Part shown: piece after piece, positions 5,380-49,278 of the stretch
Layout of the letters: each line of letters starts with the position of its first letter
Numbering within the stretch: the first letter of the stretch is position 1
Assembly: GCA_028714495.1 (NCBI GenBank)
Contig: JAQTMH010000001.1
Span: 179,814 to 243,813 of the forward strand
DNA length: 64,000 bases
Reading direction: 5' to 3'
DNA from: Patescibacteria group bacterium
GTDB taxonomy: Bacteria > Patescibacteriota > Patescibacteriia > JAHIZJ01
The notes under the pieces: generated by a model
What the model was told of the DNA's origin: nothing
The model's input: only the letters and a program-made list of their open reading frames with translations
Database searches by the model: none
Translations under genes and position numbers: made by a program

Positions 5380-5384
5380 GCCAT

Positions 5385-5834: not shown

Positions 5835-5861
5835 AATCCTAACGTCAGTTCAATAAATCTT

Positions 5862-10773: not shown

Positions 10774-11475
10774 ATGAAAGACCTCTCAAAGCTCGAAGCT
10801 ATCATCGGCTGTACGTTCAAAAATATCAAACTCCTGGAACAAAGCCTAGTTCACCGCTCGTATCTCAACGAGCATCCGGATTTTCCGCTGAAGCACAACG
10901 AGCGGATGGAATTTTTAGGCGACGCCGTACTGGAGTTGGCTGTCACCAGATACCTTTTTCAAAAGTTTCAAGAAAAATCCGAAGGCGAATTGACCAATTG
11001 GCGCGCCAGCCTGGTAAAAAGTGAAACACTGGCTGACACTGCCGAAAGTATCGATCTCAACGATTTTCTGTACCTAAGCCGGGGCGAGGCTAAAGATACC
11101 AATTCAAAAGCGCGGCGCTACATATTGGCCAACGCTCTCGAAGCTCTCATCGGCGCCATTTATCTCGATCAGGGGTTTGAAGCCGCCGAGAAATTCATTG
11201 GCAGCTTCTTGCTTACAAAACTGGACGATATCTTGCAGAATCATCTCTATCTCGATCCGAAGAGCCGCTTCCAGGAAAAAAGCCAGGAGATCGCCGGAAT
11301 CACACCTCACTATAAAGTGCTCTCCGAGTCCGGCCCTGATCACGCCAAACGTTTTAACATCGGAGTATTTCTGGGTGATGACGAGATCGCTGTCGGTGAG
11401 GGCGCCTCAAAACAAGAAGCCGAGGAAAGCGCGGCGCAGCGGGCGCTCAAAGCCAAAGACTGGAATGGCACTTAA
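10774..11475 (+). CDS. rnc: ribonuclease III
   Basis: RNase III signature ERMEFLGDAVLELAV and C-terminal dsRBD (GPDHAKRFNIGV...GASKQEAEESAAQRAL). Confidence 0.9.
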   Translation: MKDLSKLEAIIGCTFKNIKLLEQSLVHRSYLNEHPDFPLKHNERMEFLGDAVLELAVTRYLFQKFQEKSEGELTNWRASLVKSETLADTAESIDLNDFLYLSRGEAKDTNSKARRYILANALEALIGAIYLDQGFEAAEKFIGSFLLTKLDDILQNHLYLDPKSRFQEKSQEIAGITPHYKVLSESGPDHAKRFNIGVFLGDDEIAVGEGASKQEAEESAAQRALKAKDWNGT

Positions 11476-14245: not shown

Positions 14246-14738
14246 GGTACTAGATAAACTCATTTGATCCTAAACAATAAATTTTATTACCTAATCTTAG
14301 CCAAAATACCCTGTTGATAACTTATTGGCTCTAGGCATTGACAATTTGTCCGACATCTTCTATGCTTGGGGGCTTAGAAGACAAAACAAAATCTTTACAA
14401 TATAATATTAATAGTATCCGTGAGGCGATGAACTGCAGCCTGAATCTGGTCGCTTTCCCCCTAGAGTTTATTAAACTTTTGGGGGCGGGCTGCGGGGAGC
14501 TAGTAGCGAAACCGACATGGCGGAGGAAGTCCTTCGATACCAAAAACTGCCGCCGCCTCACGCCCAAGAGGCGTTTTTTGTTGGCCTGACCTTATTACCG
14601 GTTGCCTTTAGTGAAATACCTAAAGACAGCCGGTTTGTAAGGTTACTAAGCTCTTTGACAACACGGTGTAAGCGGAACAAAACGCCGAAATACAGCGCGA
14701 AGTTGTTTTCGGGGTTACCACAAAAAGGAGGACCGGTC

Positions 14739-22140: not shown

Positions 22141-22318
22141 TTAGGACTTACGCGTTTGAGACAAGTTCGAGGAAAAATGCGAGGATTTTGCGAGGCGTAG
22201 TCAAACTACGACGAGCAAGGACGCAGCATTTTGACGAAGAAATTGGCCAAAGCCGCTTACTGACCCGGCTTCGCCGGGTCAGTAAGCGGCAAGCGCGTAA
22301 GTCCTAATAATCACGAAG
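22141..22318. mobile_element. MITE-like element with 13-14 bp terminal inverted repeats, copy 1
   Basis: ttaggacttacgcg ... cgcgtaagtcctaa termini; internal hairpins cgtagtcaaactacg and gcttactgacccggcttcgccgggtcagtaagc; second copy at 51253-51425. Confidence 0.6.
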
Positions 22319-25265: not shown

Positions 25266-26770
<1,505 letters not shown>

Positions 26771-26993: not shown

Positions 26994-27476
26994 CTAAACA
27001 AAAGACAAAACAAATCCGATTAATAGCCCAAAAACAAGAATAAAGCTGGCAAATTTCAATATTTTAGATTTCGGTTTTATCGAGTAATTCGTCATCGTCC
27101 AAATTTCGCGCATATATTCCTCGGCCATTTTATCGTCAGAATCGAATACCTTCTTCAATTTATCTTCGTATTCTTCGAGTCCTTTGTCCGAAAAACCCCA
27201 CCAGCAAATAAAACTAAGGCGTTCTTTCCGCTTTCCGCGAAAAGGAAGAAAAACAACAGTTATCGCCATAACGAGCGTAATAAAGGAGCTGATGGCCAGT
27301 ACCAAAAAATTTGAGGCCTCAATGCGAATCATACTCAATCCAAAGATAACCGCGGCGATGCCAACCAAGAAAGAAGCTTTCTGGTCCAAACTGCCCCGCA
27401 GGCTGTTTTGAAGAGTAAGTGAATCACGCAATAAATTAATCGAGTTTTGATTGACTACCATATTTTTATCGATCAA
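26994..27476 (-). CDS. hypothetical membrane protein
   Basis: 160-aa ORF with two central TM helices and one C-terminal TM helix; adjacent to tRNA cluster. Confidence 0.4.
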   Translation of the reverse strand: MIDKNMVVNQNSINLLRDSLTLQNSLRGSLDQKASFLVGIAAVIFGLSMIRIEASNFLVLAISSFITLVMAITVVFLPFRGKRKERLSFICWWGFSDKGLEEYEDKLKKVFDSDDKMAEEYMREIWTMTNYSIKPKSKILKFASFILVFGLLIGFVLSFV

Positions 27477-27570
27477 TTATCAAACTGCATAATCAAATTA
27501 TAACCATTAGTTTATCCATCGTTCTTGATTGGTCGGGGATCGCGGACTCGAACCGCGGACCTCTCGCTCC

Positions 27571-27846
27571 CCCGCCCGACTGCCATGTAATATTTCTGTC
27601 AAACTATTGGTTGGGACGGCGAGCCTCGGATTATAATCCGAGGGAAATTGCTGTCTTCCCGCACCGAGTCGGGGTGCGCGGACTTGAACCGCGGACCTCT
27701 CGCTCCCAAAGCGAGCGTTCTAGCCAACTGAACTACACCCCGACTCGAGGCAGGACGTGCTTCTGCACTACGCCCCGACCAATCGCTGGACTGAACAATT
27801 GTAATTATCAAAGTATAGAGCAACGTAAGCAGCCAGGGCGGGCGGG
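27571..27846 (-). other. 276-nt intervening sequence in tRNA-Pro carrying tRNA-Pro copy B; termini cccgcccg...cgggcggg
   Basis: begins cccgcccgccctggctgc and ends ggcagtcgggcggg in tRNA orientation; no ORF; no recognisable group I P/Q/R/S elements by eye. Confidence 0.5.
27669..27742 (-). tRNA. tRNA-Pro(TGG), intact, no encoded CCA, nested in the insertion
   Basis: cggggtg ta gttc agttggcta gaac g ctcgc tttggga gcgag aggtc cgcgg ttcaagt ccgcg caccccg a. Confidence 0.8.
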
Positions 27847-28046
27847 CAAAGCGAGCGTTCTAGCCAACTGAACTAATCCCCGATGAAAAAATCCCATGTT
27901 TGGGAAAAGCTTTTCTTGTTTTTATATTTTAAGCCTGTTTTTATTACCCGCTGGTGCCGAGGGCCGGAATCCCGCACCACGCAGGGTGCGGGACAAGTCG
28001 AACCAGCATAATTATGAAATGGGCCTCTTTAGTAATTCCGCCCAAA

Positions 28047-28119
28047 TGCCTGGGGTCGGAGTTGAACCGACGACGCAAGGATTTTCAGTCCTTCGCTCTA
28101 CCACCTGAGCTACCCAGGC
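28047..28119 (-). tRNA. tRNA-Phe(GAA), no encoded CCA
   Basis: gcctggg ta gctc aggtggta gagc g aagga ctgaaaa tcctt gcgtc gtcgg ttcaact ccgac cccaggc a; flanked by inverted repeat aattccgcccaaatgcc / ggcatttgggcggaatt. Confidence 0.85.
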
Positions 28120-28182
28120 AGGCATTTGGGCGGAATTGATTTCACAGTAGGATTATATTAGCATATTTCAGTCCGGAGTTCA

Positions 28183-28225
28183 CCCCGTGCTTGTCACGGG
28201 GCTCTACCGACTGAGCTACCTCGGC
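28183..28225 (-). pseudogene. tRNA 5'-half-like fragment fused to GC hairpin
   Basis: gccgagg ta gctc agtcggta gagc followed by perfect hairpin ccccgtg-acaag-cacgggg; no T-arm or acceptor 3' strand found. Confidence 0.35.
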
Positions 28226-28258
28226 AAGTGCCCACGGCACCAGCGGGAAATCAATATT

Positions 28259-28299
28259 TGGTGGGCGATCCAGGAGTCGAACCTGGGACCTCGTCATTA
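28259..28299 (-). pseudogene. tRNA 3'-half fragment (Ile-like), CCA encoded, no matching 5' half
   Basis: taatgacgag gtc ccagg ttcgact cctgg atcgccc a cca; closely resembles the 3' half of tRNA-Ile(GAT) at 28396-28472 but with a different acceptor. Confidence 0.45.
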
Positions 28300-28334
28300 C
28301 CCGCCCGACTGCTCCGCACTCGGAGGCGGGCGGG
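28300..28334. repeat. 35-nt palindromic element sharing termini with the tRNA-Pro intervening sequence
   Basis: cccgcccgactgctccgcactcggaggcgggcggg; termini cccgcccg/cgggcggg; same cccgcccgactgc start as the 276-nt insertion; abuts the tRNA 3' half in its anticodon-loop position. Confidence 0.5.
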
Positions 28335-28395
28335 TGACCCCGCACAACTCGCCAGAGCTCGTTTGCGGGGCAGGCGCGCTGAACTCACAGGCGGA

Positions 28396-28472
28396 TGGTG
28401 GGCATGGGAGGAGTCGAACCTCCGACCTCGTCATTATCAGTGACGCGCTCTAACCATCTGAGCTACATGCCC
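28396..28472 (-). tRNA. tRNA-Ile(GAT), CCA encoded
   Basis: gggcatg ta gctc agatggtta gagc g cgtca ctgataa tgacg aggtc ggagg ttcgact cctcc catgccc a cca; flanked by ggcggatggtg / caccatccgcc helix. Confidence 0.85.
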
Positions 28473-28807
28473 ACCATCCGCCCATGCTATGTTCTAAAAT
28501 ACACTTCCCGCCTCGCACTCGACGAATAACACGAGGAGTGGTTAGAATTAACCATCTGCTTGCCCTGAACCATTACAGTACAGGGCTTGCCCCGAACCGA
28601 ACGACCGAAGGGAGTTCTGGTTCGGGGAGCTAATCGCCCTCGATCGGTTTTTATGGGGGCACTCTGACTATCCAAATCATTTGCCAAAAAATGTACGGCA
28701 ACTCCCAAACTTTAACAGAAATAGAATGTTTTGACAAGGGGTGCTATAATAACTATAGACTATGGGTATTATCATAATAACTCGATAAAAAGTAAACATT
28801 CAATATA

Positions 28808-29731
28808 ATGATCATGGCAGAATTTGACCATCTTTCCTACAAACCCTATCAACATCGGGTTTTTTTGATGCTTCTGCTATCTTTTTTCGTTTTTATGTTG
28901 GTCGCTGACGCCACGGTTTATTATCTTTTAACAAACGCCGCCTTCAGGCAAACCCAGAAAACACTTAAAGACGTCGCGACAGAAGTCTCGGCCAAAGTAC
29001 CAGTCGCTACGCTTGAACGTCTCATCGATTCTAGCCAACAGAATTCTGACGAATACCGCGAAATTGAATCAATCTTCCAGTCAGCCATGAGCGGAAATCC
29101 TTCGATTGACGATATCTACACTTTAAGACAAACGGCCACGCCTAATCGAATGTCCTTTATCGTAACTGGCGATACCACGCGGGATAGTAACGGCAACAAT
29201 GTCATTGAAGAATTCGAACAAAAAGCTATGCTTGGAGAAATCTATGATACTACAGATTTTCCTGAACTGGTAGCGGCCATGGAAAAACCAAGCGTTGATA
29301 AAACCATCACTTATGACAAGTGGGGCGCTTGGCTTTCCGGTTATGCCCCACTAAGAAACGCCAGCGGACAGAGCGTGGCTATACTCGGCGTTGATTATTC
29401 GGCTGAGATAATCCAGAAACAACGCAACGACACTCTTCAATCCCTCTTAATCGCTGACTTGATATTTCTACCGATACTTCTCCTGGCTTCATATTTTCTA
29501 TCTTTGCGTCTCAGCCGGCCTTTCCGCATTCTGGCGCAAGGCATGGACAAGCTGGCACAAGGTGATTTCAAATATCACCTACCCCTAAAACACCGCGGGG
29601 AAGAAAAGATCTTTGTCGAACTTTTCAATAATATCACGACTATGTTTTCCTCTAGACGGATTCGGGACGATAAAAAAAATTCGCCCGGGGAGGAAGCCGA
29701 TAAAACCGATCTGCCGATGAATGAGGAGTAG
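28808..29731 (+). CDS. membrane sensor protein with extracytoplasmic domain and HAMP domain, no output domain
   Basis: N-terminal TM, about 170-aa periplasmic region, second TM (LLIADLIFLPILLLASYFLSL), HAMP-like RPFRILAQGMDKLAQGDFKYHL. Confidence 0.5.
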   Translation: MIMAEFDHLSYKPYQHRVFLMLLLSFFVFMLVADATVYYLLTNAAFRQTQKTLKDVATEVSAKVPVATLERLIDSSQQNSDEYREIESIFQSAMSGNPSIDDIYTLRQTATPNRMSFIVTGDTTRDSNGNNVIEEFEQKAMLGEIYDTTDFPELVAAMEKPSVDKTITYDKWGAWLSGYAPLRNASGQSVAILGVDYSAEIIQKQRNDTLQSLLIADLIFLPILLLASYFLSLRLSRPFRILAQGMDKLAQGDFKYHLPLKHRGEEKIFVELFNNITTMFSSRRIRDDKKNSPGEEADKTDLPMNEE

Positions 29732-29766
29732 CCATTTCTCTATAGCTCTTAGTAATACAGACAAAT

Positions 29767-30897
29767 TTGCTATATTTCACCAGAACAAAACGTCCCTTAG
29801 TATATTGGAGTTTATGCGCTCTGGTTATAGTTCTCGCCGTTCTTACGGCTTTTTTTATTTTCCGCCGCGAACCAGATCCCACATTCAATATTATTTCTAT
29901 CATTACTAATACCGGAGATACAAATAACGAGGTTGACAATCAAAACCTCAATTCAAAGCCAACCGAAACCTCGCTTATTGCCGTCGGCGATATCATGCTT
30001 TCCCGAGTAGTGGGCAGCAAGTTGAAAAAAAATGGTTTTGATTACTCTTTTCGCGAAACCGCTGAATATTTAAAAACTGGAGATATCGTCTTCGGCAATT
30101 TGGAAACTTCGATCACGCCCGGACGTCAGATAAATACCGGCGAATTAAGTTTTCGGGCTGATCCAGGAGTCGAAACGGCTATGAAAGACGCGGGCTTTTC
30201 CCTAGTCTCTCTGGCCAATAACCATACGCCTAATTTCGGAGCGCCGGGGCTGTCCGATACCTTTTCCTATCTAAATGCCGCGGGCATTGATTTTGTCGGC
30301 GCCGGCGAAAACGAGGAACAAGCCTATGCTCCCGTATATATCGAACGACTGGGGCTGACTTTCGCCTTTCTGGCCTATAATGATGACGATGTGGTTCCAG
30401 CCGGCTATAAGGCTGGGTCGGATAGACCCGGTACGGCCTTTATGGACATTGCGAAACTAACTGAGTCAATTCAAAAAGCGAGAGAAAGGGCGAACTTCGT
30501 TATTATCTCAATGCACTCGGGTACTGAATACACGACTGAACCAAATAAATCGCAAAAAGAATTTGCCCATGCCGCCATTGACGCCGGCGCCGAATTGGTC
30601 ATCGGCCATCACCCGCACGTCATTCAAAAAGCCGAGATCTACCAAGGCAAATATATTTTCTACAGCCTGGGCAATTTCGTCTTTGACCAGATGTGGTCGC
30701 AGGAAACGCGCGAGGGTTTGGTGGCGAAATTTCTTTTCAATGCAAAAGGCTTGTTTAAAATCGAATTCCTGCCAATAATCATTTACGACTATGCTCAGCC
30801 CAAAGCGGCCGATACCGAATCAGCAATAAAAATGTTGGATATTCTAAATCTTGAAAATATCATCAATAACCGGTATATTGAACTCAAGCAACCCTAA
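29767..30897 (+). CDS. CapA/PGA_cap family metallophosphatase-like protein (poly-gamma-glutamate capsule synthesis family)
   Basis: LIAVGDIMLSR...FGNLET...LANNHTPNFG...ISMHSGTEY...VIGHHPHVIQ motifs. Confidence 0.7.
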   Translation: MLYFTRTKRPLVYWSLCALVIVLAVLTAFFIFRREPDPTFNIISIITNTGDTNNEVDNQNLNSKPTETSLIAVGDIMLSRVVGSKLKKNGFDYSFRETAEYLKTGDIVFGNLETSITPGRQINTGELSFRADPGVETAMKDAGFSLVSLANNHTPNFGAPGLSDTFSYLNAAGIDFVGAGENEEQAYAPVYIERLGLTFAFLAYNDDDVVPAGYKAGSDRPGTAFMDIAKLTESIQKARERANFVIISMHSGTEYTTEPNKSQKEFAHAAIDAGAELVIGHHPHVIQKAEIYQGKYIFYSLGNFVFDQMWSQETREGLVAKFLFNAKGLFKIEFLPIIIYDYAQPKAADTESAIKMLDILNLENIINNRYIELKQP

Positions 30898-30916
30898 CTA
30901 CTTTACGATTTTATCT

Positions 30917-31441
30917 ATGCCAAAAATCAAAACCATCCTCTACATAGCTACCACGATAAACGGCTACGTGGCCAAAGAAAACGATACCACTAGCTTTGTC
31001 TCTGATGTTGAGTGGCGAAGTTTTTTGGTCATGGTCAAGCGCACCGGCAACATGATAATCGGCCGACGAACCTACGAGGTTATGCGCCGGGCCGGAGAAT
31101 TAAAAGCCCTGGATCCAGTTACTATCATGGTAGTCACCTCTCAAGCTAAATACAAAGTCATTGGACCTAATAATTACGCAGTGAGAACTCCAATTAAAGC
31201 CTTAGATTATCTAAAAAAACTCGGCTTCAAAGAAGCTCTGGTCGCCGGTGGCGGGATTTTGAACTCGTCTTTTATCGCTAAAAAATTGATTGATGAAATA
31301 TATCTCGTCATTGAACCAGTGGCCTTTGGCAAGGGAATAAAGCTTTTTGCCGATAAGCCCTTCGACTTCAATCTCCAATTGCTTGACTTCAAGCGCCTCT
31401 CACCAGACGAAATCCAATTGCACTACAAAGTAATTAAATAA
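30917..31441 (+). CDS. dihydrofolate reductase family protein (RibD C-terminal domain-like)
   Basis: ILYIATTINGYVAK...MIIGRRTYEV...LVAGGGILNSSF pattern; internal Met start preferred over track start 30851. Confidence 0.65.
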   Translation: MPKIKTILYIATTINGYVAKENDTTSFVSDVEWRSFLVMVKRTGNMIIGRRTYEVMRRAGELKALDPVTIMVVTSQAKYKVIGPNNYAVRTPIKALDYLKKLGFKEALVAGGGILNSSFIAKKLIDEIYLVIEPVAFGKGIKLFADKPFDFNLQLLDFKRLSPDEIQLHYKVIK

Positions 31442-31487
31442 GCCTACAAATGAACTAGGGTGGCTGGATTTCTTTGGTTTTTTCAAT

Positions 31488-31520
31488 ATAAAAAACCCGC
31501 TTTGTCTGGGTTTTTTTACT
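31488..31520. terminator. putative bidirectional terminator between convergent genes
   Basis: aaaaaaccc-gctttgtct-gggttttttt. Confidence 0.45.
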
Positions 31521-31532
31521 TTATTAATCGCT

Positions 31533-32390
31533 TTATTTAAGCTCTTTCAGAAACGGGGTTAAGTCAACTTTTTCGGTTGGTCGTGAAACTAGGGTTTGAT
31601 TGGCCAGCGCCTTGAAATGACTTTCAAAAGTCGGGCGCGCTTCTTGGAAAAAAATACCGATAGGCAGGCGCGCGGTTTCGCCGGCCTTTTGATAAGCCGC
31701 CTGCCGGTTATTTGTCGGCCAGTTTTTCGAGTCCAGCTTGTATATTTTTGACCGGTATTCGTCGCGGATATTTTTAGCGTCGTAAAAAATCACACACGGC
31801 TGTAATAGCTCGACTACCGAGAAGCCTTTGTGGGTAAGGGCGCGTTTGTAAATTTCTTTCAAACTGGCCGTATCATCGGCGAAACCGCGCGCTACAAAAG
31901 TGGCTCCGGCTGTCAGCGCGATTTGCGGTCCATTGAGCGGCTGGTCAATTGAACCGACCAGGGCGGTTTTGGTTTTATCACCCAGTCGCGTTGTCGGCGA
32001 GGTTTGGCCAGTAGTTAAGCTATAGCGCTCGTTATTGTGGATAATGAGAGTCATGTTGACATTGCGACGGCAAGCGTGCAAAAAATGATTTCCACCTTCG
32101 CCATAGCCTCCGCCGTCTCCGGATAAAGCTACTACCGTCAAATCGTTATTGGCTAACTTAACCGCGGTCGCCACCGGAATGGTCCGGCCGTGAAGGCTGT
32201 GAAAACCGTAAAGGCGGTAATTATTCGCGCCGTTGCCATTGCAGCCAATATCAAATGTCATCACAACCTGATGGGGTTCCAAGCCCAGCTCGGCAAAGGC
32301 TTGGGTTAAAGCCGCGTAGGATCCATAGTTGCCACAAGCCGGGCACCAGGTCGGTTTATTATTTGTTTGAAAATCTTTTGCTTGAGCCAT
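31533..32390 (-). CDS. korB: 2-oxoacid:ferredoxin oxidoreductase beta subunit (TPP-binding)
   Basis: TWCPACGNYGSYAAL...GCNGNGANNYRLYGFHSLHGR...ALSGDGGGYGEGGNHF. Confidence 0.85.
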   Translation of the reverse strand: MAQAKDFQTNNKPTWCPACGNYGSYAALTQAFAELGLEPHQVVMTFDIGCNGNGANNYRLYGFHSLHGRTIPVATAVKLANNDLTVVALSGDGGGYGEGGNHFLHACRRNVNMTLIIHNNERYSLTTGQTSPTTRLGDKTKTALVGSIDQPLNGPQIALTAGATFVARGFADDTASLKEIYKRALTHKGFSVVELLQPCVIFYDAKNIRDEYRSKIYKLDSKNWPTNNRQAAYQKAGETARLPIGIFFQEARPTFESHFKALANQTLVSRPTEKVDLTPFLKELK

Positions 32391-32392
32391 AT

Positions 32393-34141
32393 TTAACCTT
32401 TTGAAGTGATTAAGCGCTTGACTTGTGCGACAATTTCATCAGGGTAAAATTGAGCGCCGTTATATTTTGAAATTCGGTCAGTAACTTTTATCCCAGTCTG
32501 TCCGCGCAAAATTTCCGCGAATTGACCGGTAAAATTATTCTCAATCGCCACTATCCGGCGTTGCCCTTGTAAAGCTTTTTTCATGGTTGATTCGCTCATT
32601 GGCCAGGGCGCCGTGATATGCAAATAATTCACCTGAGGCAAATCCTTCATCGCCTCTAGCACCGGACCTTTTGTTGAACCCCAGCCGAGAAGTGTTAATC
32701 GGGCCTTTTTCGGGCCAAAAAGCTTTGGTTTCGGCAGTTCAGCAAGCAGACGACTAAGCTTTCTAAATCGTTTTTCGGCTTGTTCAGCCACTACTTTGGC
32801 GGAAAAACCCTCAATCGAATAGCCAAACTCATCATGCTCGTCGCTGTTTGCCAGATGAATTCCGCCGCGACAGCCTGGAATAGCTCTGGGTGAAATGCCC
32901 GTCTTGGTATTGAGATAGCGTTTGTATCCCTTAATCCCGGCTAAGTCCTTTTCCGTCAAAATCTCGCCGCGTTCGATTTTAAAATTATTCGCCGGTACGG
33001 CTATCGACTGGTGGCCTTCTAAAATATATTTATCAAGGAGAATGAACACCGGAATCTGGTATTTCTCGGCGAGATTGAAGGCCTGTCCGGTCAATTCATA
33101 GGCTTCGGCCGCGTCGCCAGGCGCCAAAATTACCCGGATGAATTCCCCGTGGCCGGCTTTGGTGAGATAGGCCAGATCACCCTGGGCGGTCCAGGTCGGC
33201 AAACCCGTGGCTGGACCTGGCCGCTGGCCTTCAACTATGACCAGAGGCGTTTCAGTCATCGCGGCCAGGGCTAATCCTTCGGTCATCAGCGCGAAGCCGC
33301 CGCCTGACGTGGCTGTCATGGAACGGACGCCGGCATAGGCAGCGCCGATCGCCATGTGAATGGCTGAAATCTCGTCCTCCGGCTGTATCACAAACATGCC
33401 GGATTTTTCTGCCCAGTTAATTAAGTCATGAAGTATGGGCGAGGCCGGAGTCATTGGGTAGGAGGCCAGAAATTTACAGCCGGCTGAAATTGCTCCCAGC
33501 GCCACCATGTCGCTCGCGGTCACCAGTATTTTATCTGCTGGCCGGTTTTTAACCGGACTTAGGGTAAATGGGAATTTCCCAGGCTCAAGATTTTTCCGGG
33601 CATAGTCAAAGCCGGCCTGGACTGCCTTTTGGTTCATGACCACGACTTCGCTGCCTTTATCCCTGAAAACTTCGGCAATCGTCTGCCGGACAATAGCCAG
33701 GTCATATTTCAGAAGCGCCACAGTCGCTCCGATTGCCAGCATATTCGCGGCCAAAGGCGGTATCCCAGCCTCGTCGCCTAATTTTTTCAAAGGCAGCGGA
33801 TAAGCTTTTATCCCGTCAAATCCCTTCCGGCCCGGTTTAAAAGTGTCGCTGTCATAGAGGATGACCCCGCCCGATACCACATCAGGCTGGCAGTAGTCAA
33901 AAGCCTCCTGGGTCAGGGCGATTAAAAGCTGAGTTGACCGGTAGATCGCGGTCACCGGCTTGTTTGATATGCTTAAGCGATAAGTCACCAGGCCGCCGCG
34001 GATCCGCGAGGGGTACTCGGAACTGTCAAACGTAAAAAGTCCGCCCCGGCTGCACGCCTTGGCAAAAATTAAACCGGCTACCTGTTGGCCAGCGCCGGCA
34101 ACACCTCCGATTTTCCAGGTTAGTACTTCCGTTTTTGTCAT
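32393..34141 (-). CDS. korA: 2-oxoacid:ferredoxin oxidoreductase alpha subunit with N-terminal gamma domain
   Basis: gamma-type start TWKIGGVAGAGQQVAGLIFAKA...; alpha core ...MTATSGGGFALMTEGLALAAMTETPLVIV. Confidence 0.85.
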   Translation of the reverse strand: MTKTEVLTWKIGGVAGAGQQVAGLIFAKACSRGGLFTFDSSEYPSRIRGGLVTYRLSISNKPVTAIYRSTQLLIALTQEAFDYCQPDVVSGGVILYDSDTFKPGRKGFDGIKAYPLPLKKLGDEAGIPPLAANMLAIGATVALLKYDLAIVRQTIAEVFRDKGSEVVVMNQKAVQAGFDYARKNLEPGKFPFTLSPVKNRPADKILVTASDMVALGAISAGCKFLASYPMTPASPILHDLINWAEKSGMFVIQPEDEISAIHMAIGAAYAGVRSMTATSGGGFALMTEGLALAAMTETPLVIVEGQRPGPATGLPTWTAQGDLAYLTKAGHGEFIRVILAPGDAAEAYELTGQAFNLAEKYQIPVFILLDKYILEGHQSIAVPANNFKIERGEILTEKDLAGIKGYKRYLNTKTGISPRAIPGCRGGIHLANSDEHDEFGYSIEGFSAKVVAEQAEKRFRKLSRLLAELPKPKLFGPKKARLTLLGWGSTKGPVLEAMKDLPQVNYLHITAPWPMSESTMKKALQGQRRIVAIENNFTGQFAEILRGQTGIKVTDRISKYNGAQFYPDEIVAQVKRLITSKG

Positions 34142-34214
34142 ACTTTATACAGTTTAGCAAACTTTTTCTGATTGGTAAATCTCAAAAAAACACCCTTGAT
34201 TTTATCGGCCTATT

Positions 34215-34547
34215 TTGATACAATCCAGGAAGAATATGGATTTTTTCAAAGAAGTTTATCGTCTGGCGAAACAAATCTCCAGAGGCAAAGTCGCCACCTA
34301 TGGTCAAATTGCTGGCCTTATTTCAACGCCCCGGGCCGCTCGTCTGGTTGGATTTGCCCTGCGCCGCTCGCCTAACGACGTCCCTTGGCAGCGCGTGATC
34401 AATTCAAAGGGCATGATTTCAATCGAAAATCTCCATTGCCCCAAAGAATTGCAGGCCAAATTGCTTAAAAATGAAGGGGTTGAAGTTTTTAAAAGAGACG
34501 GCAATTACTTTGTTAATTTGAAAGCATACCAATGGCAACCAAAATAA
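34215..34547 (+). CDS. atl: alkyltransferase-like protein (MGMT DNA-binding domain; Trp replaces the active-site Cys)
   Basis: KVATYGQIAGLISTPRAARLVGFAL...VPWQRVINSKG; PCHRV position reads PWQRV. Confidence 0.65.
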   Translation: MIQSRKNMDFFKEVYRLAKQISRGKVATYGQIAGLISTPRAARLVGFALRRSPNDVPWQRVINSKGMISIENLHCPKELQAKLLKNEGVEVFKRDGNYFVNLKAYQWQPK

Positions 34548-35329
34548 ATCCAGCCAAACCGCTTAAAGTTATCAAAGCAAACGTTAATCCTCTGACAATC
34601 GCCAATCAGTATCTGTATCATGAGTTTCTAAAAATATTCTGGGATGTGGCTGACGCTCCTTTTAGAAAAAAAATTAAACGCTCAATCAACCGAATGTATC
34701 GGCGCGACGGCGCTCATAATTATTGGCTGCTGGTCGCGGCCATTTCCGAAGGCTGGAGACTTAAGTGGGTATTCCGGCTGCTGACCAACCCGGCCTATCG
34801 CTGGAATCTGGAGCTTCGAAAAATCAGCAATTTAACCATGACTGGTTTCAACCCGGCTGAAGTTGATAAACTAATTTTCAAATGCCGCCGCAATTTTTCC
34901 GAGTTCGCCGAATATTACCGAAACCATCCGGCTTTTTTCAAAAAATATATGCCGAATCTGAAGCCGCGACCAGAGCGTGACCAACATCCGGTTTTAGCTT
35001 ATTGGAATCTCCAGGAGAAACAACTGAGGCTATTTGACGGAATGCGCCGAGCCACTCTGGCTGCGATAAACAAAAAGCCTTATATCAAAGCCTACATCGG
35101 TTATCCAATCAAACAGGGCGGGCCAGCCGTGAATCTTGATAAAATTCAATTCCTGAAATTTCTCTTTGACGGCGCCCGAAGAGACGCTGGTACTGACCGG
35201 GCCTTTGTCAAAGTTGCTCGTGAAACAGTCAGGCAATACCAAAACGGCGCTCAAGCCTTCCGTCAAAGCCTCAAACCCTGGTCAGATGCGCGCACGAAAA
35301 AGTTTATCAAAGCTGTTTTAAAAAAATAA
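34532..35329 (+). CDS. hypothetical basic protein
   Basis: 265-aa ORF overlapping atl 3' end by 16 nt; no motif recognised. Confidence 0.4.
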   Translation: MATKINPAKPLKVIKANVNPLTIANQYLYHEFLKIFWDVADAPFRKKIKRSINRMYRRDGAHNYWLLVAAISEGWRLKWVFRLLTNPAYRWNLELRKISNLTMTGFNPAEVDKLIFKCRRNFSEFAEYYRNHPAFFKKYMPNLKPRPERDQHPVLAYWNLQEKQLRLFDGMRRATLAAINKKPYIKAYIGYPIKQGGPAVNLDKIQFLKFLFDGARRDAGTDRAFVKVARETVRQYQNGAQAFRQSLKPWSDARTKKFIKAVLKK

Positions 35330-35331
35330 CC

Positions 35332-35709
35332 ATGCCTAAAATAAAGAAAATCTACTATAATAAGCTGATTCGAGACAAGATTCCTCAAGTGATGGAGAAA
35401 AGCGGCGCTCGATACAATGTTCACGTTATATCGCAGAAACAGTTCAAGGAGGAACTGCTCAAAAAAGTCGGGGAAGAAGCTAGCGGTCTTCTGACATCAA
35501 AAAATAAAATCGGGGTTATCCAGGAAATTGGCGACGTGATAACGGTGATTGAAGAAATTAAACGGATTTTTAAAATCACTGACCGAGAGATAAAACAAAC
35601 AATGGTTAGGGCGTTCAAACGCAAAGGTGGATTCCGGAAAAGGCTTTACCTGGTCTGGTCAGAAGACACGGGCTATCGGACAAATGAGCGTCGGAATACT
35701 AAAAAATAA
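35332..35709 (+). CDS. MazG-like all-alpha NTP pyrophosphohydrolase family protein
   Basis: N-terminal KLIRDKIPQVMEKSG pattern typical of the small MazG/HisE-like family. Confidence 0.45.
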   Translation: MPKIKKIYYNKLIRDKIPQVMEKSGARYNVHVISQKQFKEELLKKVGEEASGLLTSKNKIGVIQEIGDVITVIEEIKRIFKITDREIKQTMVRAFKRKGGFRKRLYLVWSEDTGYRTNERRNTKK

Positions 35710-35714
35710 CACTC

Positions 35715-35788
35715 GCGGGTATCGTATAGTGGTAATACCACAGGTTTCCAACCTGTTGCCGGGGGTTCGATTCCCCCTACCCGCTCCA
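35715..35788 (+). tRNA. tRNA-Gly(TCC), CCA encoded
   Basis: gcgggta tc gtat agtggta atac c acagg tttccaa cctgt tgcc ggggg ttcgatt ccccc tacccgc t cca. Confidence 0.85.
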
Positions 35789-35899: not shown

Positions 35900-35936
35900 C
35901 CCCGCTGCTCGCGAGCGGCGGGGCCTACCCGCTCCA
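35900..35936 (+). repeat. GC hairpin fused to copy of tRNA-Gly(TCC) 3' acceptor end
   Basis: ccccgctgctcgcgagcggcgggg + cctacccgctcca; 12-nt direct repeat ctacccgctcca with the tRNA 3' end 147 bp upstream. Confidence 0.5.
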
Positions 35937-37974: not shown

Positions 37975-38240
37975 AGGTAGATTACCTCTTTACATTATTT
38001 AAAATAACAAATATTAGTATTATACCAACCCAGAACCACGAGGGGGTTCTGGGCCCCGCACCTAACATGGTGCGGGGTTCCACCACCTGGGCAGGTAGAT
38101 TAGCCCTTTACCTTATTTGAAATAACAATATCTGCAACATACCGATTTAAACCACGAAGGTTCTTGTTACCTATCATTAATATTACGAGATTCCGACAAG
38201 CCCTGAACCCAACGTGGTTCAGGGCACCACCTGGGCAATA
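37975..38240. repeat. two degenerate repeat units upstream of tRNA-Leu, each a GC hairpin plus copy of the tRNA-Leu 5' end
   Basis: ccaccacctgggca(g/a) recurs at about 37962, 38081 and 38226; hairpins ccagaacc-acgaggg-ggttctgg, ccccgcacc-taacatg-gtgcgggg, ccctgaaccc-aacg-tggttcaggg. Confidence 0.5.
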
Positions 38241-38668: not shown

Positions 38669-39595
38669 TCAACCCTGCCTAAGCTCAGTTATTATTTCTT
38701 TGAGTTGGGGAGGAAGGTCAATAAAAAACTTCTTTTCCTGACCAGCCGGATCGACCAAGGTCAAATGGTCGGCACAGAGGAACAGGCTGGTCCAGTGCTT
38801 TAAGCGGATATAACGTTTGATTTGATAAAGATTGTCGCCAACCAGCGGATGCCCTAAGCCGTGAAAATGAGCTCGGATTTGATGGGTTCGACCGGTCAGG
38901 GTGGTTACCTTAACCAGAGTGTATTTAGAAAACCTTTCGATAACTTCATACTCAGTCTCCGCCCATTTGGCGGGTTTCGTGCCAGGGGCGGTTTCTGAAA
39001 CACTGACTATTTTGCCGTCCTTTGAACGCTGCAGAAGGAAATTAATTGTGCCGCTGTCAGGTAAGCCCGCGCCGTAAACTAAAGCGGTGTAGCTTTTTTT
39101 AACAGCGTGAGCCTGAAAAAGCTTTTTGAAATGCTCAAACGCTTCCTGGGTGAGTGCCACGATCATTAAACCCGAAACTTCCTTATCCAGTCGGTGGACA
39201 ATGCCAGGACGCAAAGGGTCGTCACCAACTTTGATGATTTGAGGATATCTTGAAACCAAACCATTAACCAGGGTTTTGCTCTTGGTCGCCTCAGAGGGAT
39301 GGACGACCAGACCGGCCGGTTTATTGATTATCAGATAGTCGGGCGACTCAAAAACCGTCTCCCAGGTAATGGCCGGGTCAGGCGTTAAATCGATTTCCGG
39401 CGGTGATAATATTTCACCCGCGACAACATCGCCGCTCCGCAATTGCTGATGGGGCGAAGCGTCTTTCCCGTTGACCGATACCTGACCAGCGATAATCTGT
39501 TTCTGAATCCAGCTCCGGCTATAGCCCGGGAGCTGCAGACGAAGATAGATATCAAGCCGTTCTCCGTTTTTTTCGACTGTATATTTTATTTCCAT
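38669..39595 (-). CDS. rluD: RluA-family pseudouridine synthase with S4 domain (RluD-like)
   Basis: N-terminal S4 domain; LVVHPS...HRLDKEVSGLMIVA catalytic motif. Confidence 0.85.
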   Translation of the reverse strand: MEIKYTVEKNGERLDIYLRLQLPGYSRSWIQKQIIAGQVSVNGKDASPHQQLRSGDVVAGEILSPPEIDLTPDPAITWETVFESPDYLIINKPAGLVVHPSEATKSKTLVNGLVSRYPQIIKVGDDPLRPGIVHRLDKEVSGLMIVALTQEAFEHFKKLFQAHAVKKSYTALVYGAGLPDSGTINFLLQRSKDGKIVSVSETAPGTKPAKWAETEYEVIERFSKYTLVKVTTLTGRTHQIRAHFHGLGHPLVGDNLYQIKRYIRLKHWTSLFLCADHLTLVDPAGQEKKFFIDLPPQLKEIITELRQG

Positions 39596-41048
39596 ATTGA
39601 CGATCTAAAAATCCGAGGGCTTGCTTTTTAGTCCGTATCTTGCCCCGAAGCTGGGTTGCTCTCAATTGATGGATTATCTCTCCAATCAGAGGGCCAGGTT
39701 TAAGTTTTAATCGGGACATGATATCACGGCCGTTGAGCAAAATTTTCGGTTGCTTCTTTTTTTCATAACCAAGCCTTTTGATTTCCTTGGTCAGTTCCAC
39801 GGCATCGTAAAAATTCTTGAGTGAAGGCTCTCCCTCCATTGACAGACTGGCCGCCTGGTCGGCAAATATCAATTGGAGTAATTTTTGGCCCAGGGTCGGC
39901 TCGAGAAAATATTTTTCAAAGGTCGCCCGGTTAAACTTTATCGGGGAAGTGTGGGTAATGATCAAGTGGTAATGAATCAGCCAGGCCAGATGGCTTGAGT
40001 CAACTTTGCCCTGGTAACTTGAAAGGCGTAGACGTTCGGCGATATCAAAAGCCAGTTCGCCCCCTACTTGTTCGTGGCCGTAAAATGACAAGTGGTGGTT
40101 TAATCTAAGCTTCCGGGTATACGGCTTGCCGAGATCATGAAACAAAGTTGCTAAAATCAATTCTAAATCTGGCTTTACTCCTGGAAAATGCTTGTGAAAC
40201 ATCGGCGAAAATAAACGCTCCAACGCCAACCGGGTATGCGTCCAGACGTCGCCCTCAGAATGATATTCGGGTCCCTGCTGGCAATCTTTCAGATGAAGCA
40301 GCTCGGGGATCAAAGTCCGAAAAACGCCGCTTAATTCAAAAACATCAAACGCCCGCACCGCGTCAGCTTCAAAAGACTTGAGCAATTCGCGAGCGACTAT
40401 TTCCCGAGGCAGCTTTGAATTATTAAGAAACCCGATCATGGCTTTTGTTGCCTGCCAGGTTTTTGATTCAAAAGTAAACCGAAGCTGAATGGCCAGTCGC
40501 AGACCTCTCAAAATCCGCGAGTAGTCCTCTTGAAAACGTTTTTCGGTCTGTCCAACCGCCCGAATTATTCCAGCGGCTAAATCAGACAGTCCACCAGTTG
40601 GGTCAATGAGTTTTTTTCGCTTTAAATCCCAGGCCAGAGCGTTTATGGTGAAATCGCGCCTCAATAAATCTTCTTCAATCGGCATCTGATAATCAGTCTT
40701 GACCGCGAACTCGCGGTACCCGCCAGCCAGGTACAGCGAGTGTTCAGTCCGAGGTAGAGCAATATCGATCGGCTCGCCAAGAACAGAGTCTTTGGGCTGG
40801 AATTTAAATACCCCGAACGTTTTCCCTACCAGGTCAACTCGACCGAGACTTTTTAAAAATTTCTCCAGGGTGGCGGGCTTTACTCCGGAAATGACAAAGT
40901 CATAATCTTTTGAAGGCCGCCCCAAAATGATATCTCGAACCATGCCCCCAACCAGATACGCTTTGGCCTGGGGGAATTTTTTGAATAGCTTGGCGAAGTA
41001 GCCTAGGCTCGTTTCCTTGGCAATTGTTTGAGCGATATTTTCCATCAC
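39552..41048 (-). CDS. cca: tRNA nucleotidyltransferase (CCA-adding enzyme) with HD domain
   Basis: LVGGMVRDIILGRPSKDYDFVISG PolB-type head; HD domain (LFHDLGKP) C-terminal. Confidence 0.8.
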   Translation of the reverse strand: MMENIAQTIAKETSLGYFAKLFKKFPQAKAYLVGGMVRDIILGRPSKDYDFVISGVKPATLEKFLKSLGRVDLVGKTFGVFKFQPKDSVLGEPIDIALPRTEHSLYLAGGYREFAVKTDYQMPIEEDLLRRDFTINALAWDLKRKKLIDPTGGLSDLAAGIIRAVGQTEKRFQEDYSRILRGLRLAIQLRFTFESKTWQATKAMIGFLNNSKLPREIVARELLKSFEADAVRAFDVFELSGVFRTLIPELLHLKDCQQGPEYHSEGDVWTHTRLALERLFSPMFHKHFPGVKPDLELILATLFHDLGKPYTRKLRLNHHLSFYGHEQVGGELAFDIAERLRLSSYQGKVDSSHLAWLIHYHLIITHTSPIKFNRATFEKYFLEPTLGQKLLQLIFADQAASLSMEGEPSLKNFYDAVELTKEIKRLGYEKKKQPKILLNGRDIMSRLKLKPGPLIGEIIHQLRATQLRGKIRTKKQALGFLDRQYGNKIYSRKKRRTA

Positions 41049-41637: not shown

Positions 41638-41730
41638 GGCGCTTCTCCTTCTCTTCCGATGGGCTGTTCTAAAAAGAACGAGGGTTGTATGTGCTCGGGT
41701 GGGCGGGGTGATCTCCATCCCCCATCTTCC

Positions 41731-41807
41731 TGGTGCGCGTACCTGGACTTGAACCAGGGACCTCCACAATGTCAATGTGGCGCTCTAACCAACTGAGCTA
41801 TACGCGC
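41731..41807 (-). tRNA. tRNA-Val(GAC), CCA encoded
   Basis: gcgcgta ta gctc agttggtta gagc g ccaca ttgacat tgtgg aggtc cctgg ttcaagt ccagg tacgcgc a cca; flanked by ccatcccccatcttcc / ggaagatgggggat helix; partial copy aatgtggcgctctaaccaac plus hairpin cccccgtgaaaacggggg upstream. Confidence 0.85.
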
Positions 41808-42071
41808 GCACTAGGAAGATGGGGGATCAATGTGGCGCTCTAACCAACCTTGCCCCCGTGAAAACGGGGGTGAGCTAGACGCCCACCTGAACAAACAAAA
41901 TAAATTTAACGACATACATAATCACTTCTTACCTCATAGTGAGCATGCCCCGGATTATCCCCGATTAAATCGGGGACGGGGGACCCCCTGCCTTATAGCG
42001 ACGCTTCTGATATTATGGAAAGGTGTTGTAGCGTCGATATATCGATGACCTACCTATTTATTCACATTCTC

Positions 42072-42148
42072 ATGGTGGGCATGGATGGATTTGAACCATC
42101 GACCCCCGTCTTATAAGGGCGGTGCTCTAACCGCTGAGCTACATGCCC
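42072..42148 (-). tRNA. tRNA-Ile with TAT anticodon (tentative), CCA encoded
   Basis: gggcatg ta gctc agcggtta gagc a ccgcc cttataa gacgg gggtc gatgg ttcaaat ccatc catgccc a cca; same acceptor as tRNA-Ile(GAT); one C-A mismatch in anticodon stem. Confidence 0.6.
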
Positions 42149-42273
42149 ACCATGAGAATTAAATTGTATAGGTCATCGCTATAAGGGCGGTGTCCCGATC
42201 GGCTTGGCCGCGTCAAGACTGCCTACCCCAAAATATGCCCTAACTTTCCGCCAAATATATTCAATTTCTGTGG

Positions 42274-48715: not shown

Positions 48716-48758
48716 TGGAGCGGGAGACCCCGCCGCTCGCGAGCGGCGGGGCGACCTC
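48716..48758 (-). repeat. copy of tRNA-Gly(GCC) acceptor ends with T-arm replaced by GC hairpin
   Basis: tggagcgggaga-ccccgccgctcgcgagcggcgggg-cgacctc versus genuine tggagcgggagacgggattcgcacccgcgacctc at 48834; same hairpin as at 35900. Confidence 0.5.
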
Positions 48759-48908: not shown

Positions 48909-49035
48909 AAGTGTCGTGGATAAACGCGAAGGTGGGTTGGCAAGTAAACATCAAACTATGCTGCCCGGCATACCCGACTAGATCAGGAACCGGGGGGAAC
49001 CGCCGTATAGGGGTTTTGTCCCGCAGCCCACGCTT

Positions 49036-49110
49036 TGGAGGCCAGGAGGGGAATCGAACCCCTGTATAAGGGTTTTGCAGACCCTCGCCTTACCGCTTGG
49101 CTACCTGGCC
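49036..49110 (-). tRNA. tRNA-Cys(GCA), CCA encoded
   Basis: ggccagg ta gcca agcggtaa ggcg a agggt ctgcaaa accct tatac agggg ttcgatt cccct cctggcc t cca; flanked by cacgctttgg / ccaaagcgtg helix. Confidence 0.85.
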
Positions 49111-49133
49111 ATCAGCTTCCAAAGCGTGGGAAC

Positions 49134-49204
49134 GGGATCCCGCCTTCATTATACTGTATAAAGGTGGCGGGACAGACCGCCGCCTTGCTACTTGGCTACC
49201 ACGC
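49134..49204 (-). pseudogene. degenerate tRNA-Cys-like tandem copy
   Basis: ggcgtgg ta gcca agtagcaa ggcg... retains the acceptor/D-arm of tRNA-Cys but anticodon and T arms are disrupted (cccgccacc...aaggcgggatcccg hairpin, also seen at about 9030-9070). Confidence 0.4.
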
Positions 49205-49278
49205 CAGATTACTGCGCTTTTACAACTATACCAAAAATTTAAAGAGGTGGTCAACGCCACTGCCACTAATTTAATCGG

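Follow-up and report, generated by a model that had tools for sequence, protein, structure and literature searches.

The nearest known counterparts of the tRNA genes described here are, in our rating, disrupted tRNA genes, small palindromic insertions and leader-trailer processing stems. In pre-rRNA, leader and trailer pair around the mature RNA, and the resulting stems, which are cut by RNase III (rRNA intervening sequences belong here as well), vary in sequence while their pairing is kept. Small palindromic elements, i.e., miniature inverted-repeat transposable elements (MITEs), Rickettsia palindromic elements, yeast mitochondrial GC clusters and Neisseria Correia elements (the hairpins of which are cut by RNase III), are short GC-rich hairpins with common ends that are found in small, AT-rich genomes and insert into RNA genes. 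Integrative elements that restore their target tRNA bring in a replacement sequence, so that tRNA function is kept. In archaea, split and intron-bearing tRNA genes (Nanoarchaeum; multi-intron genes of Thermoproteales) are interrupted in the anticodon, D and T loops, with GC-rich complementary sequences abutting the halves (PMC4033280, PMC4390854), and in the Patescibacteria group I introns occupy site 35/36 in the genes for tRNA-Asn and tRNA-Asp, where the 5' exon must end in U (PMC13011429). We analyzed a 64-kb stretch of contig JAQTMH010000001.1 (hereafter "the window"), which comes from an uncultivated, small-genome bacterium of the Patescibacteria (candidate phyla radiation, CPR) and in which several tRNA genes carry complementary leader and trailer arms and sit within older, interrupted copies of the same tRNA gene.

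Among the 11 standard tRNAs recognized by ARAGORN and Rfam in the window, 5 carry long perfect stems formed by leader and trailer. A preliminary description of this DNA had claimed stems of 10-17 base pairs (bp) on at least six tRNAs; every repeat that it quoted is present, on the minus strand and at verified coordinates (Table 1), while the span that it had given for them (28047-28472) takes in tRNA-Phe and tRNA-Ile(GAT) only. Flank shuffles supported each of five long stems (Phe, Ile-GAT, Ile-TAT, Val-GAC and Cys; P ≤ 0.002) but not the sixth, the 5-bp stem of tRNA-Pro (P = 0.97). The longest perfect leader/trailer complements measure 13-17 bp for Phe, 10 bp for Ile-GAT, 11 bp for Ile-TAT, 15 bp for Val-GAC and 13 bp for Cys, as compared to 5 bp for Pro and 3-5 bp for the remaining tRNAs (both Gly tRNAs, Ala, Val-TAC and Leu). 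None of 106 control tRNAs, drawn from 1.17 Mb of unrelated, mostly CPR loci, reached a 9-bp complement. Folding bore out the earlier expectation, as RNAfold placed the stem within the minimum-energy structure of all six precursors (z scores of -4.3 to -8.0, as compared to -0.7 to -2.6 for three stem-less control tRNAs).

The further claim that the flanks extend the acceptor stem applies to some of these tRNAs only. In-register coaxial extension, with position -1 opposite the discriminator base N73 and positions -2 to -4 opposite CCA, was found in the window at both Ile tRNAs and at the short Pro stem. In Val-GAC and Cys, on the other hand, an internal loop with 5-7 nucleotides (nt) on the 5' side parts the stem from the acceptor stem, and the 17-bp Phe repeat takes in the last four nucleotides of the tRNA (GGCA), so that its full pairing competes with the acceptor stem; in register, the Phe stem has 13 bp and a 4-nt bulge. 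The extensions themselves measure 10-17 bp, and approx. 20 bp, about the two helical turns expected of an RNase III substrate, are reached only if they are stacked on the 7-bp acceptor stem or if outer rod segments are counted.

Local BLAST of the tRNAs against the window turned up pieces of these tRNAs next to intact genes. The stem-bearing tRNAs sit within older copies of the same tRNA, which are usually split in the anticodon loop between positions 35 and 36, and the stems are the inner parts of hairpin-shaped inserts within these disrupted cognate genes. This gene-in-gene architecture, which is our main finding, is absent from the preliminary description, where a structural role in excision or mobility had been offered as an alternative to processing; the layout lends support to that alternative. 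The two outer exons of the Pro unit, when joined, make a perfect tRNA-Pro(TGG) (ARAGORN), which differs from the inner gene by compensated changes in the acceptor stem, and the whole unit folds as a cloverleaf with its anticodon stem running into a long interrupted rod that bears a second cloverleaf at its tip. The 3' half of the Ile-GAT relic (28259-28299) is identical at 40 of 41 positions to the functional tRNA-Ile(GAT) gene of a related genome (locus L117; other loci of relatives are given by similar handles), and the 3' end of the outer Phe copy is identical at 19 of 19 positions to the functional gene of L117. Among the window copies of Phe, Ile-GAT and Val-GAC, it is the broken one that represents the family-typical orthologue, with the intact one being divergent, which points to replacement by an incoming copy and not to local duplication.

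The inserts share further features. Perfect GC-rich hairpins (CCCC...GGGG) interrupt the broken tRNA copies in the D-loop, at position 26 or in the T-loop, and the short GC-rich hairpins of the window are concentrated within approx. 250 nt of tRNAs. An insert-end motif, CCCGCC...GGCGGGCAGG, recurs across genomes and tRNA types and always in tRNA-sense orientation; over 17 mapped junctions from seven genomes, left ends read CCCGCC and right ends GGCGGG, often with CAGG thereafter. Inserts delimited by this motif interrupt fragments of Val, Ile, Ala, Phe and Gly tRNAs at their D-loops and anticodon loops, and one junction, CGTACGGCGGGCAGG followed by TAA, is identical in L104 (in Ile-TAT) and L117 (in Ile-GAT). 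Nearly all mapped insertion points are cloverleaf loops, which suggests an action on the folded single strand. A search of viral contigs for a phage origin returned approx. 100 matches to the 15-nt end motif, in GC-rich phages and at the level of chance, with none beside a part of a tRNA, and this origin was rejected.

The scans that supplied our background set, i.e., distant loci from a GTDB genome scan (with RluD, identity ≤ 46%) and from a JGI metagenome scan (with POR, identity ≤ 63%), gave no orthologous tRNA context. Homologues of a 328-aa membrane protein encoded beside the tRNAs led to eight further genomes with syntenic loci, which share the gene order S1, FtsH, 328-aa protein, tRNA-Ile(TAT) and tRNA-Val(GAC), CCA-adding enzyme, RluD and L19, followed by tRNA-Leu, Val and Ala. 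At the amino acid level, FtsH identity among these relatives is 75-79%, and four-fold degenerate sites are only 22-40% identical; neutral sites are thus saturated. Of the 55 tRNAs in the nine family loci, 13 bear a perfect helix of 10 bp or more, in exact N73 register in 9 of these 13, and fragments of a tRNA's own sequence (at least 13 nt, within 350 nt) lie near 21 of the 55 family tRNAs as compared to 9 of 110 tRNAs elsewhere (P = 7 × 10-6).

An in-register stem of 10-13 bp is present at tRNA-Ile(TAT) in the window, L104, L106, L111 and L114, with differing arm sequences (TGAGAA, TCAGTA, CGAGAGA, TAGATAC and CGGGATA), and is absent in L108 and L116. In an alignment of eight genomes, both sides have changed in 8 of the 12 stem pairs, and pairing holds in 76% of cells even with the stem-less L108 and L116 included; none of 500 shuffles reached the observed covariation, and no slid register came close. 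The Ile-TAT leaders of the window, L106 and L114 can be aligned, yet both arms have changed together. The flanks thus behave as a conserved, covarying helix at orthologous tRNAs, which supports part of the interpretation in the preliminary description, and because covariation is present, simple insertion-site duplications without covariation do not describe them. Val-GAC stems are found in the window, L104, L116 and L111, with a weaker one in L108; the Cys stem is found in the window and in L111, with one compensatory exchange of G-C to A-T, while an Ala stem occurs only in L114 and a Gly-TCC stem only in L104.

Nesting is likewise family-wide and appears to be ongoing. The outer tRNA-Ile(GAT) of L117 consists of two halves that match the inner gene at 100% identity and enclose a 176-nt insert at 35/36, which has the ends CCCGCCTGCC and GGCGGGCAGG; in the fold of this unit, one tRNA is borne on a rod inside the other. 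There are three nested levels of Ile-TAT in L111, and in L113 a stem merges with the conserved insert-end motif. tRNA-Cys is nested in the window, L111, L113 and L114 and is plain, abutting tRNA-Gly(GCC), in L104 and L106; as these genomes are distant, the comparison is no strict empty-site test.

Two of the stalked genes of relatives, Val-GAC of L104 (11717-11795) and Ala of L114 (17400-17477), end in ACCCA instead of ACCA and have TGGGT before them, for which reason ARAGORN draws an 8-bp acceptor stem. The Ala leader arm of L114 can also pair with a second copy of the trailer that lies upstream, AAACTATCGAGG, so that two hairpins are possible, each of which excludes the other.

Three results bear on the question whether the stem is functional or no more than the end of an element. 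Between the window and L111, the Cys tRNA is 95% identical, its right arm 94% and its left arm 71% (higher beside the tRNA), as compared to 56% for the outer 5' half; by this comparison, the Cys arms appear to have been kept and the disrupted gene to be decaying. Among the transition mismatches between arms, 20 are of the G-U type and 7 of the A-C type (P = 0.019), whereas background flanks with non-significant stems show 32 and 27, respectively. Together with the co-changing Ile-TAT arms, these results favor a constraint on pairing in the sense RNA. We also observed that the D-loop hairpin of the outer Val copy (window 41853-41870, L104 11578-11595) shares its loop, TTTTCA, and its flanks between the two genomes and differs by two compensated stem changes (CCCCCG/CGGGGG and CACCCA/TGGGTG), within an apparently dead gene. 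That this hairpin is kept at saturated divergence is unexpected for a dead gene and hints that the outer fragments are functional or that the whole unit was transferred recently.

Table 1. Positions in the window of the intact tRNA genes, their arms, the broken tRNA copies that surround them and the RNase III gene.
Feature	Position	Strand	Remarks
RNase III gene	10774..11475	+	RNase III domain and double-stranded RNA-binding domain; candidate stalk-cutting enzyme
Outer tRNA-Pro(TGG), 3' exon	27530..27570	-	positions 36-76 with CCA; starts with G36
Insert in outer tRNA-Pro anticodon loop	27571..27846	-	276 nt; ends CCCGCCCGCC...CAGTCGGGCGGG; carries inner tRNA-Pro
Inner tRNA-Pro(TGG), intact	27668..27742	-	no encoded CCA; ARAGORN, Rfam
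Pro short stem, 5 bp	27743-47 (leader CGAGT), 27665-69 (trailer ACTCG)	-	
Outer tRNA-Pro(TGG), 5' exon	27847..27882	-	positions 1-35; ends with G35
Outer tRNA-Phe, 3' end	27952..27993	-	ATTCCGGCCCTCGGCACCA (27952-27970), preceded by a 24-nt GC hairpin in the T-loop
Phe trailer arm	28034..28050	-	GGCATTTGGGCGGAATT; first 4 nt are the tRNA 3' end
tRNA-Phe(GAA), intact	28047..28119	-	no encoded CCA; ARAGORN; Rfam 68.3 bits; at tip of hairpin insert
Phe leader arm	28121..28137	-	AATTCCGCCCAAATGCC
Outer tRNA-Phe, disrupted 5' part	28165..28225	-	GCCGAGG type (intact in L117); 18-nt GC hairpin at 28183-28200
Relic of older tRNA-Ile(GAT)	28259..28354	-	ARAGORN "tRNA-???"; 5' half decayed
Hairpin insert in Ile-GAT relic	28300-28334	-	35 nt, at 35/36; CCCGCCCGCC...CAGTCGGGCGGG
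Ile-GAT trailer arm	28390..28399	-	ACCATCCGCC; A73, CCA and 6 nt of trailer
tRNA-Ile(GAT), intact	28396..28472	-	CCA encoded; ARAGORN, Rfam
Ile-GAT leader arm	28473..28482	-	GGCGGATGGT; pairs in register with A73-CCA and 6 nt of trailer
Val-GAC trailer arm	41717..41731	-	AGGAAGATGGGGGAT
tRNA-Val(GAC), intact	41731..41807	-	acceptor stem GCGCGTA, atypical for family
Val-GAC leader arm	41813..41827	-	ATCCCCCATCTTCCT; start is exact break of outer anticodon loop
Outer tRNA-Val(GAC), 5' half	41827..41884	-	GGGCGTC type (family-typical); ends with A35; 18-nt D-loop hairpin 41853-41870
Outer tRNA-Ile(TAT), 3' part	41940..41997	-	TATAAGGCAGGGGGTC...; 19-nt T-loop hairpin 41958-41976
Ile-TAT trailer arm	42066..42076	-	ACCATGAGAAT
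tRNA-Ile(TAT), intact	42073..42148	-	ARAGORN, Rfam
Ile-TAT leader arm	42149..42159	-	ATTCTCATGGT; interrupted stem runs on outward to approx. 42172
Outer tRNA-Ile(TAT), 5'-half fragment	42180..42192	-	CACCGCCCTTATA; ends in anticodon loop
Outer tRNA-Cys, 3' remnant	48996..49018	-	
Cys trailer arm	49027..49039	-	TCCAAAGCGTGGG; right arm to 49019 94% identical to L111
tRNA-Cys(GCA), intact	49036..49110	-	ARAGORN, Rfam
Cys leader arm	49118..49130	-	CCCACGCTTTGGA
Outer tRNA-Cys, 5' half	49173..49205	-	broken after G34; 56% identical to L111

We propose that these units are hairpin-armed tRNA replacement cassettes, the arms of which are kept as a stalk for RNA processing and insulation that is probably opened by RNase III before RNase P acts, and we put the probability of this reading at roughly one in two. 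The helices, their excess over chance, their compensatory conservation, the nested layout and the common insert ends are established; from these we infer co-transcription, the nuclease and the entry of the cassettes (by transposition-like insertion, possibly from other strains). A cassette would consist of a left arm, a complete tRNA gene and a right arm, with the stems as the inner ends of the arms; it would have inserted into an older copy of the same tRNA, mostly at 35/36, and its tRNA would have taken over the function. Read-through from the promoter of the resident gene would then yield a tRNA on a stalk of 10-20 bp, which would pair the 5' leader with the discriminator base, CCA and trailer and would hide the 3' CCA end (promoter and terminator scans gave nothing decisive on where the cassette tRNAs are transcribed from). 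Selection would keep the stalk paired, and its mode of action would most likely be that of rRNA processing stems. The stalk would let the new tRNA fold apart from the near-identical pseudo-halves on its flanks and would present a double-stranded substrate, to be opened by RNase III or by unwinding before RNase P, 3' trimming or CCA addition. RNase III, the gene of which (rnc) had been named in the preliminary description and was confirmed by its two domains, could act on a stalk that stacks on the acceptor and T stems; if the cut left a 2-nt 3' overhang at A76, a leader of 2 nt would remain for RNase P. For Phe and Pro, the genes of which do not encode CCA, this end would be supplied by the CCA-adding enzyme (39552-41048).

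Several points weigh against these cassettes with a processing stalk. Pairing of the leader with the RCCA end inhibits bacterial RNase P and must be unwound (PMC9433436), which makes the stalk a hindrance unless it is removed, and an extension of 10-15 bp is a short substrate for RNase III if it does not stack on the acceptor and T stems; both the transcription of the arms and their cleavage by RNase III are suppositions on our part, the latter purely so. The perfect arms could be kept by arm-to-arm correction at the DNA level or by a recent spread of element variants, and the covarying D-loop hairpin in the apparently dead Val copy implies that selection for tRNA maturation is not the whole story. 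The arm sequences differ among tRNA types save for approx. 6-10 nt at the ends. No target-site duplication was seen at Pro or at Ile-GAT of L117, where the exons join exactly, and the TATA at Ile-TAT is ambiguous; nor was a gene for a transposase, integrase or endonuclease found beside the cassettes. The Pro unit has the family-typical acceptor stem on its inner and not on its outer copy, i.e., the reverse of Phe, Ile-GAT and Val-GAC. Finally, in a crude test, tRNAs with and without a stem did not differ in the presence of nearby fragments of their own sequence (7 of 13 and 17 of 42, respectively; P = 0.5).

More tentatively, and to us somewhat doubtful, the same units may be regarded as a hitherto undescribed kind of selfish or semi-domesticated unit, with a promoter-less tRNA gene on a hairpin stalk inserting into the loops of its cognate gene, chiefly at 35/36. 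Such a self-replacing unit would use the resident promoter and would be freed by RNA processing, and the host would never be without the tRNA even as its resident gene is replaced serially. The preference for the cognate gene could be a matter of viability, as a genome with single-copy tRNA genes tolerates only insertions that are self-replacing; a more radical option is guidance of the insertion by the sequence of the tRNA.

An unlikely alternative is that the stems are the terminal inverted repeats of a DNA element (MITE-like or palindromic) that is active and non-autonomous and has no role as RNA, under which the likeness among genomes would reflect recent spread or horizontal transfer and the pairing would be kept for a transposition machinery or through arm-to-arm correction of DNA. 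The end motifs common to several genomes (including the junction identical in L104 and L117), the duplicated hairpin families of the window, the differing presence at orthologous sites, the identity of outer and inner copies in L117, which implies a recent event, and the placement of nearly all insertions in cloverleaf loops fit such an element. It does not fit that no transposase or recombinase adjoins the units in the window or in the loci, that target-site duplications are lacking and that only approx. 6-10 nt of the ends are conserved; moreover, the most conserved arm segments in Cys are those adjoining the tRNA and not the termini, and the bias of G-U over A-C mismatches points to the sense RNA. 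This bias, the Ile-TAT covariation, the in-register pairing with N73-CCA and the presence of an RNase III gene would all be expected if the stems had evolved in place for a double-strand-specific nuclease, purely for RNA processing and with the nearby tRNA fragments as unrelated debris. There is a precedent in MALAT1 mascRNA, where leader-trailer pairing extends a tRNA-like acceptor stem and can promote RNase P processing (PMC8457004). The likeness to rRNA processing stems, drawn in the preliminary description, holds insofar as covariation and G-U bias fit a stem at the RNA level; the stems are, on the other hand, not general to the tRNAs of this organism, as 5-6 of the 11 tRNAs have them, with a patchy occurrence among orthologues. 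As orthologues gain or lose them (Ile-TAT, Cys, Ala and Gly-TCC), as the Val-GAC stem starts exactly at the break of the outer anticodon loop, as the stem in L113 merges with the insert-end motif and as many perfect helices of 10-15 bp are unlikely to arise de novo, we consider processing stems without insertion quite unlikely.

Self-primed (snap-back) copying would explain perfect helices by a different route: a tRNA-shaped single strand, such as cDNA of a precursor that is mature at its 5' end and unprocessed at its 3' end, would fold at its acceptor stem and extend its own 3' end, the leader would be written as the exact reverse complement of N73-CCA-trailer, and the hairpin would be captured in a tRNA gene. 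This predicts perfect, gap-free helices from -1:N73 on, as found in 9 of 13 cases, and a fragment of a reverse-transcriptase gene is present in the related genome L117. The internal loops between stem and tRNA in Val-GAC, Cys and Ile-GAT of L117, leaders that are homologous among genomes and carry compensatory changes, unlike fresh copies, the lack of a reverse transcriptase in the window and the conserved outer end motif, which would be unexplained, make this route very improbable. The anticodon and T loops are known crossover sites of integrases. Decayed scars of island or phage integration at tRNA genes, with att-site duplications, would agree with this and with the 3'-end duplicates of Gly-TCC and Gly-GCC beside the same palindrome, a classic attL/attR layout. 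Integration would, however, displace 3' (rarely 5') parts of a tRNA and not nest a complete gene between both halves; the inserts have only 35-276 nt and no integrase, direct 3'-end repeats are confined to the two Gly genes, the end motif is at chance level in viral contigs, and leader/trailer complementarity and covariation would not be accounted for, so that we regard such scars as highly improbable. An artefact of assembly or binning, i.e., chimeric tRNA regions, has a negligible probability. The tRNA regions do break Logan contigs, but assemblies of five lineages, from Logan, ENA, JGI and NCBI, run collinearly over the nested regions at 99.95-100% identity, and this agreement of independent assemblies, together with the recurrence of the architecture in eight further genomes, argues against an artefact. 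Logan contigs (SRR22315508/9) match window positions 28438-35786 with zero mismatches; for 27.0-27.5 kb, a look-up of an independent assembly via open reading frame (ORF) 26994-27476 gave no record. An interpretation of the Logan contig breaks inside tRNA-Ile and tRNA-Gly as insertion polymorphism was dropped, as k-mers common to tRNA genes explain them equally well.

Comparison with the described systems shows where the replacement cassettes depart from each. Unlike pre-rRNA stems, the stalks enclose one tRNA of 75 nt, have 10-17 bp and often run into the acceptor stem, covering CCA, and they occur on some tRNAs only and are tied to insertions. The outer Pro halves and the Ile halves of L117 would join perfectly, as halves of archaeal split tRNAs do; here, however, the organism is a bacterium, the junctions lie in a continuous helix and not in a bulge-helix-bulge, most outer copies are decayed and the insert holds an intact copy of the same tRNA. 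A bulge-helix-bulge intron was rejected on the folds, in which the junctions are opposite each other in a continuous helix (A35:U36 in L117) and internal loops are not of the 3-4-3 type, and neither EndA nor an RNA ligase was found among the ORFs scanned. With the Patescibacteria group I introns, the inserts share the phylum and the 35/36 site (in the window at Pro, at Val-GAC and at the relic of Ile-GAT; in L117 at Ile-GAT), whereas they are rod-like, carry tRNAs and have 35-276 nt. A group I intron was rejected since the 5' exons end in G (Pro and Cys) or A (Val-GAC and Ile-GAT) and not in U; there was also no match to RF00028 even at E ≤ 5 with relaxed filters, although divergent introns can escape this model (PMC13011429). 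The hairpins in the transcript could be RNase III substrates like those of palindromic elements, but the cargo is a complete tRNA gene of the interrupted type, the arms adjoining the tRNA are constrained, and there is no target duplication and no known transposase. Integrative elements replace the 3' (rarely the 5') part of a tRNA, span kilobases and carry an integrase, whereas here a whole tRNA arrives on a hairpin and both old halves remain. In our full-text literature search, we found no bacterial case described in which a tRNA gene is nested, be it in the anticodon loop of its own kind or otherwise, is flanked by hairpins or bears a conserved stalk of leader and CCA.

Other tRNA genes and hairpins of the window show related layouts. 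Upstream of the intact tRNA-Leu(GAG), which has no stalk, two truncated copies of the promoter-proximal region and of the first 12-23 nt of the tRNA (38029-38236, minus strand) are arranged in tandem and not nested; their D-loop is broken by three perfect hairpins of 24-26 nt (CCCCGCACC..GGTGCGGGG, CCCAGAACC..GGTTCTGGG and GCCCTGAACC..GGTTCAGGGC). The 3' ends of tRNA-Gly(TCC) and tRNA-Gly(GCC) recur as 13-nt duplicates approx. 110-135 nt downstream of the respective gene, in both cases directly after a near-identical 24-nt palindrome, CCCCGC(T/C)GCTCGCGAGCGGCGGGG (35900-35936, plus strand, and 48716-48751, minus strand); the layout is attL/attR-like, yet no integrase is present. A 19-nt hairpin, TCCCCGATTAAATCGGGGA, occurs in two identical copies, one in the T-loop of the broken Ile-TAT (41958-41976) and one at 55089-55107, 12 nt upstream of the ATG of ORF 54622-55077 and away from tRNAs. 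The longest perfect hairpin of the window (22252-22290; 18 bp, GCCGCTTACTGACCCGGC TTC GCCGGGTCAGTAAGCGGC), in the gap after the S16 gene, has no relation to tRNAs. In more distant loci of Absconditabacterales/Peribacteria (L013, L015 and L006), several tRNAs have exact fragments of their own sequence (19-27 nt) within 350 nt; duplication of tRNA fragments may be wider in CPR, or ARAGORN may be missing genes in these loci.

Near the tRNA clusters of relatives, we noted a 2H-phosphoesterase/LigT-like ORF (L115 11601-12239; Pfam E = 4.7 × 10-6), a small GIY-YIG nuclease ORF between tRNA-Val and tRNA-Ala (L108 10801-11136) and the end of a reverse-transcriptase gene (L117 1-53), none of which is conserved beside the cassettes. 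The LigT-like ORF was considered as a conserved RNA-repair neighbor and rejected, being unrelated to window ORF 41086-41637. Rfam identified a bacterial 16S rRNA gene at 25266-26770, which is not followed by a 23S gene in the window. The Ile-GAT, Phe and Pro cluster (27530-28472) lies on the strand opposite to 16S in the window and on the same strand in L117 (16S 5369-6985, tRNAs 9094-9730); the 16S match is 1617 nt long in L117 and 1505 nt in the window, so that L117 may carry an insertion of approx. 110 nt. The window also contains a c-di-GMP-II-type riboswitch (14412-14526) and a cobalamin riboswitch (51468-51659), the latter upstream of DUF4430/DUF6580-type genes that are syntenic in relatives.

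If replacement by stalked cassettes is correct, essential single-copy tRNA genes in the ultra-small genomes of Patescibacteria would be replaced by arriving copies of their own kind; this way of turning genes over, and possibly of exchanging tRNAs horizontally, would escape standard annotation (ARAGORN reported one "tRNA-???" and ignored the rest). Such replacement would provide a bacterial counterpart of tRNA genes that are disrupted, split or interrupted by several introns, which have until now been regarded as archaeal, and would bear on the long debate as to whether disrupted tRNA genes arise from mobile insertions, while the conserved insert ends would point to an enzyme that acts on the loops of tRNA-shaped nucleic acid. 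These organisms would also offer natural precursors with a 5' leader that pairs completely with the discriminator base and CCA; as model RNase P handles such precursors poorly, they should have either an extra maturation step (RNase III or a helicase) or an RNase P of different tolerance. Should the self-replacing unit prove to be the correct reading, it would imply an RNase III-dependent route of tRNA maturation in bacteria.

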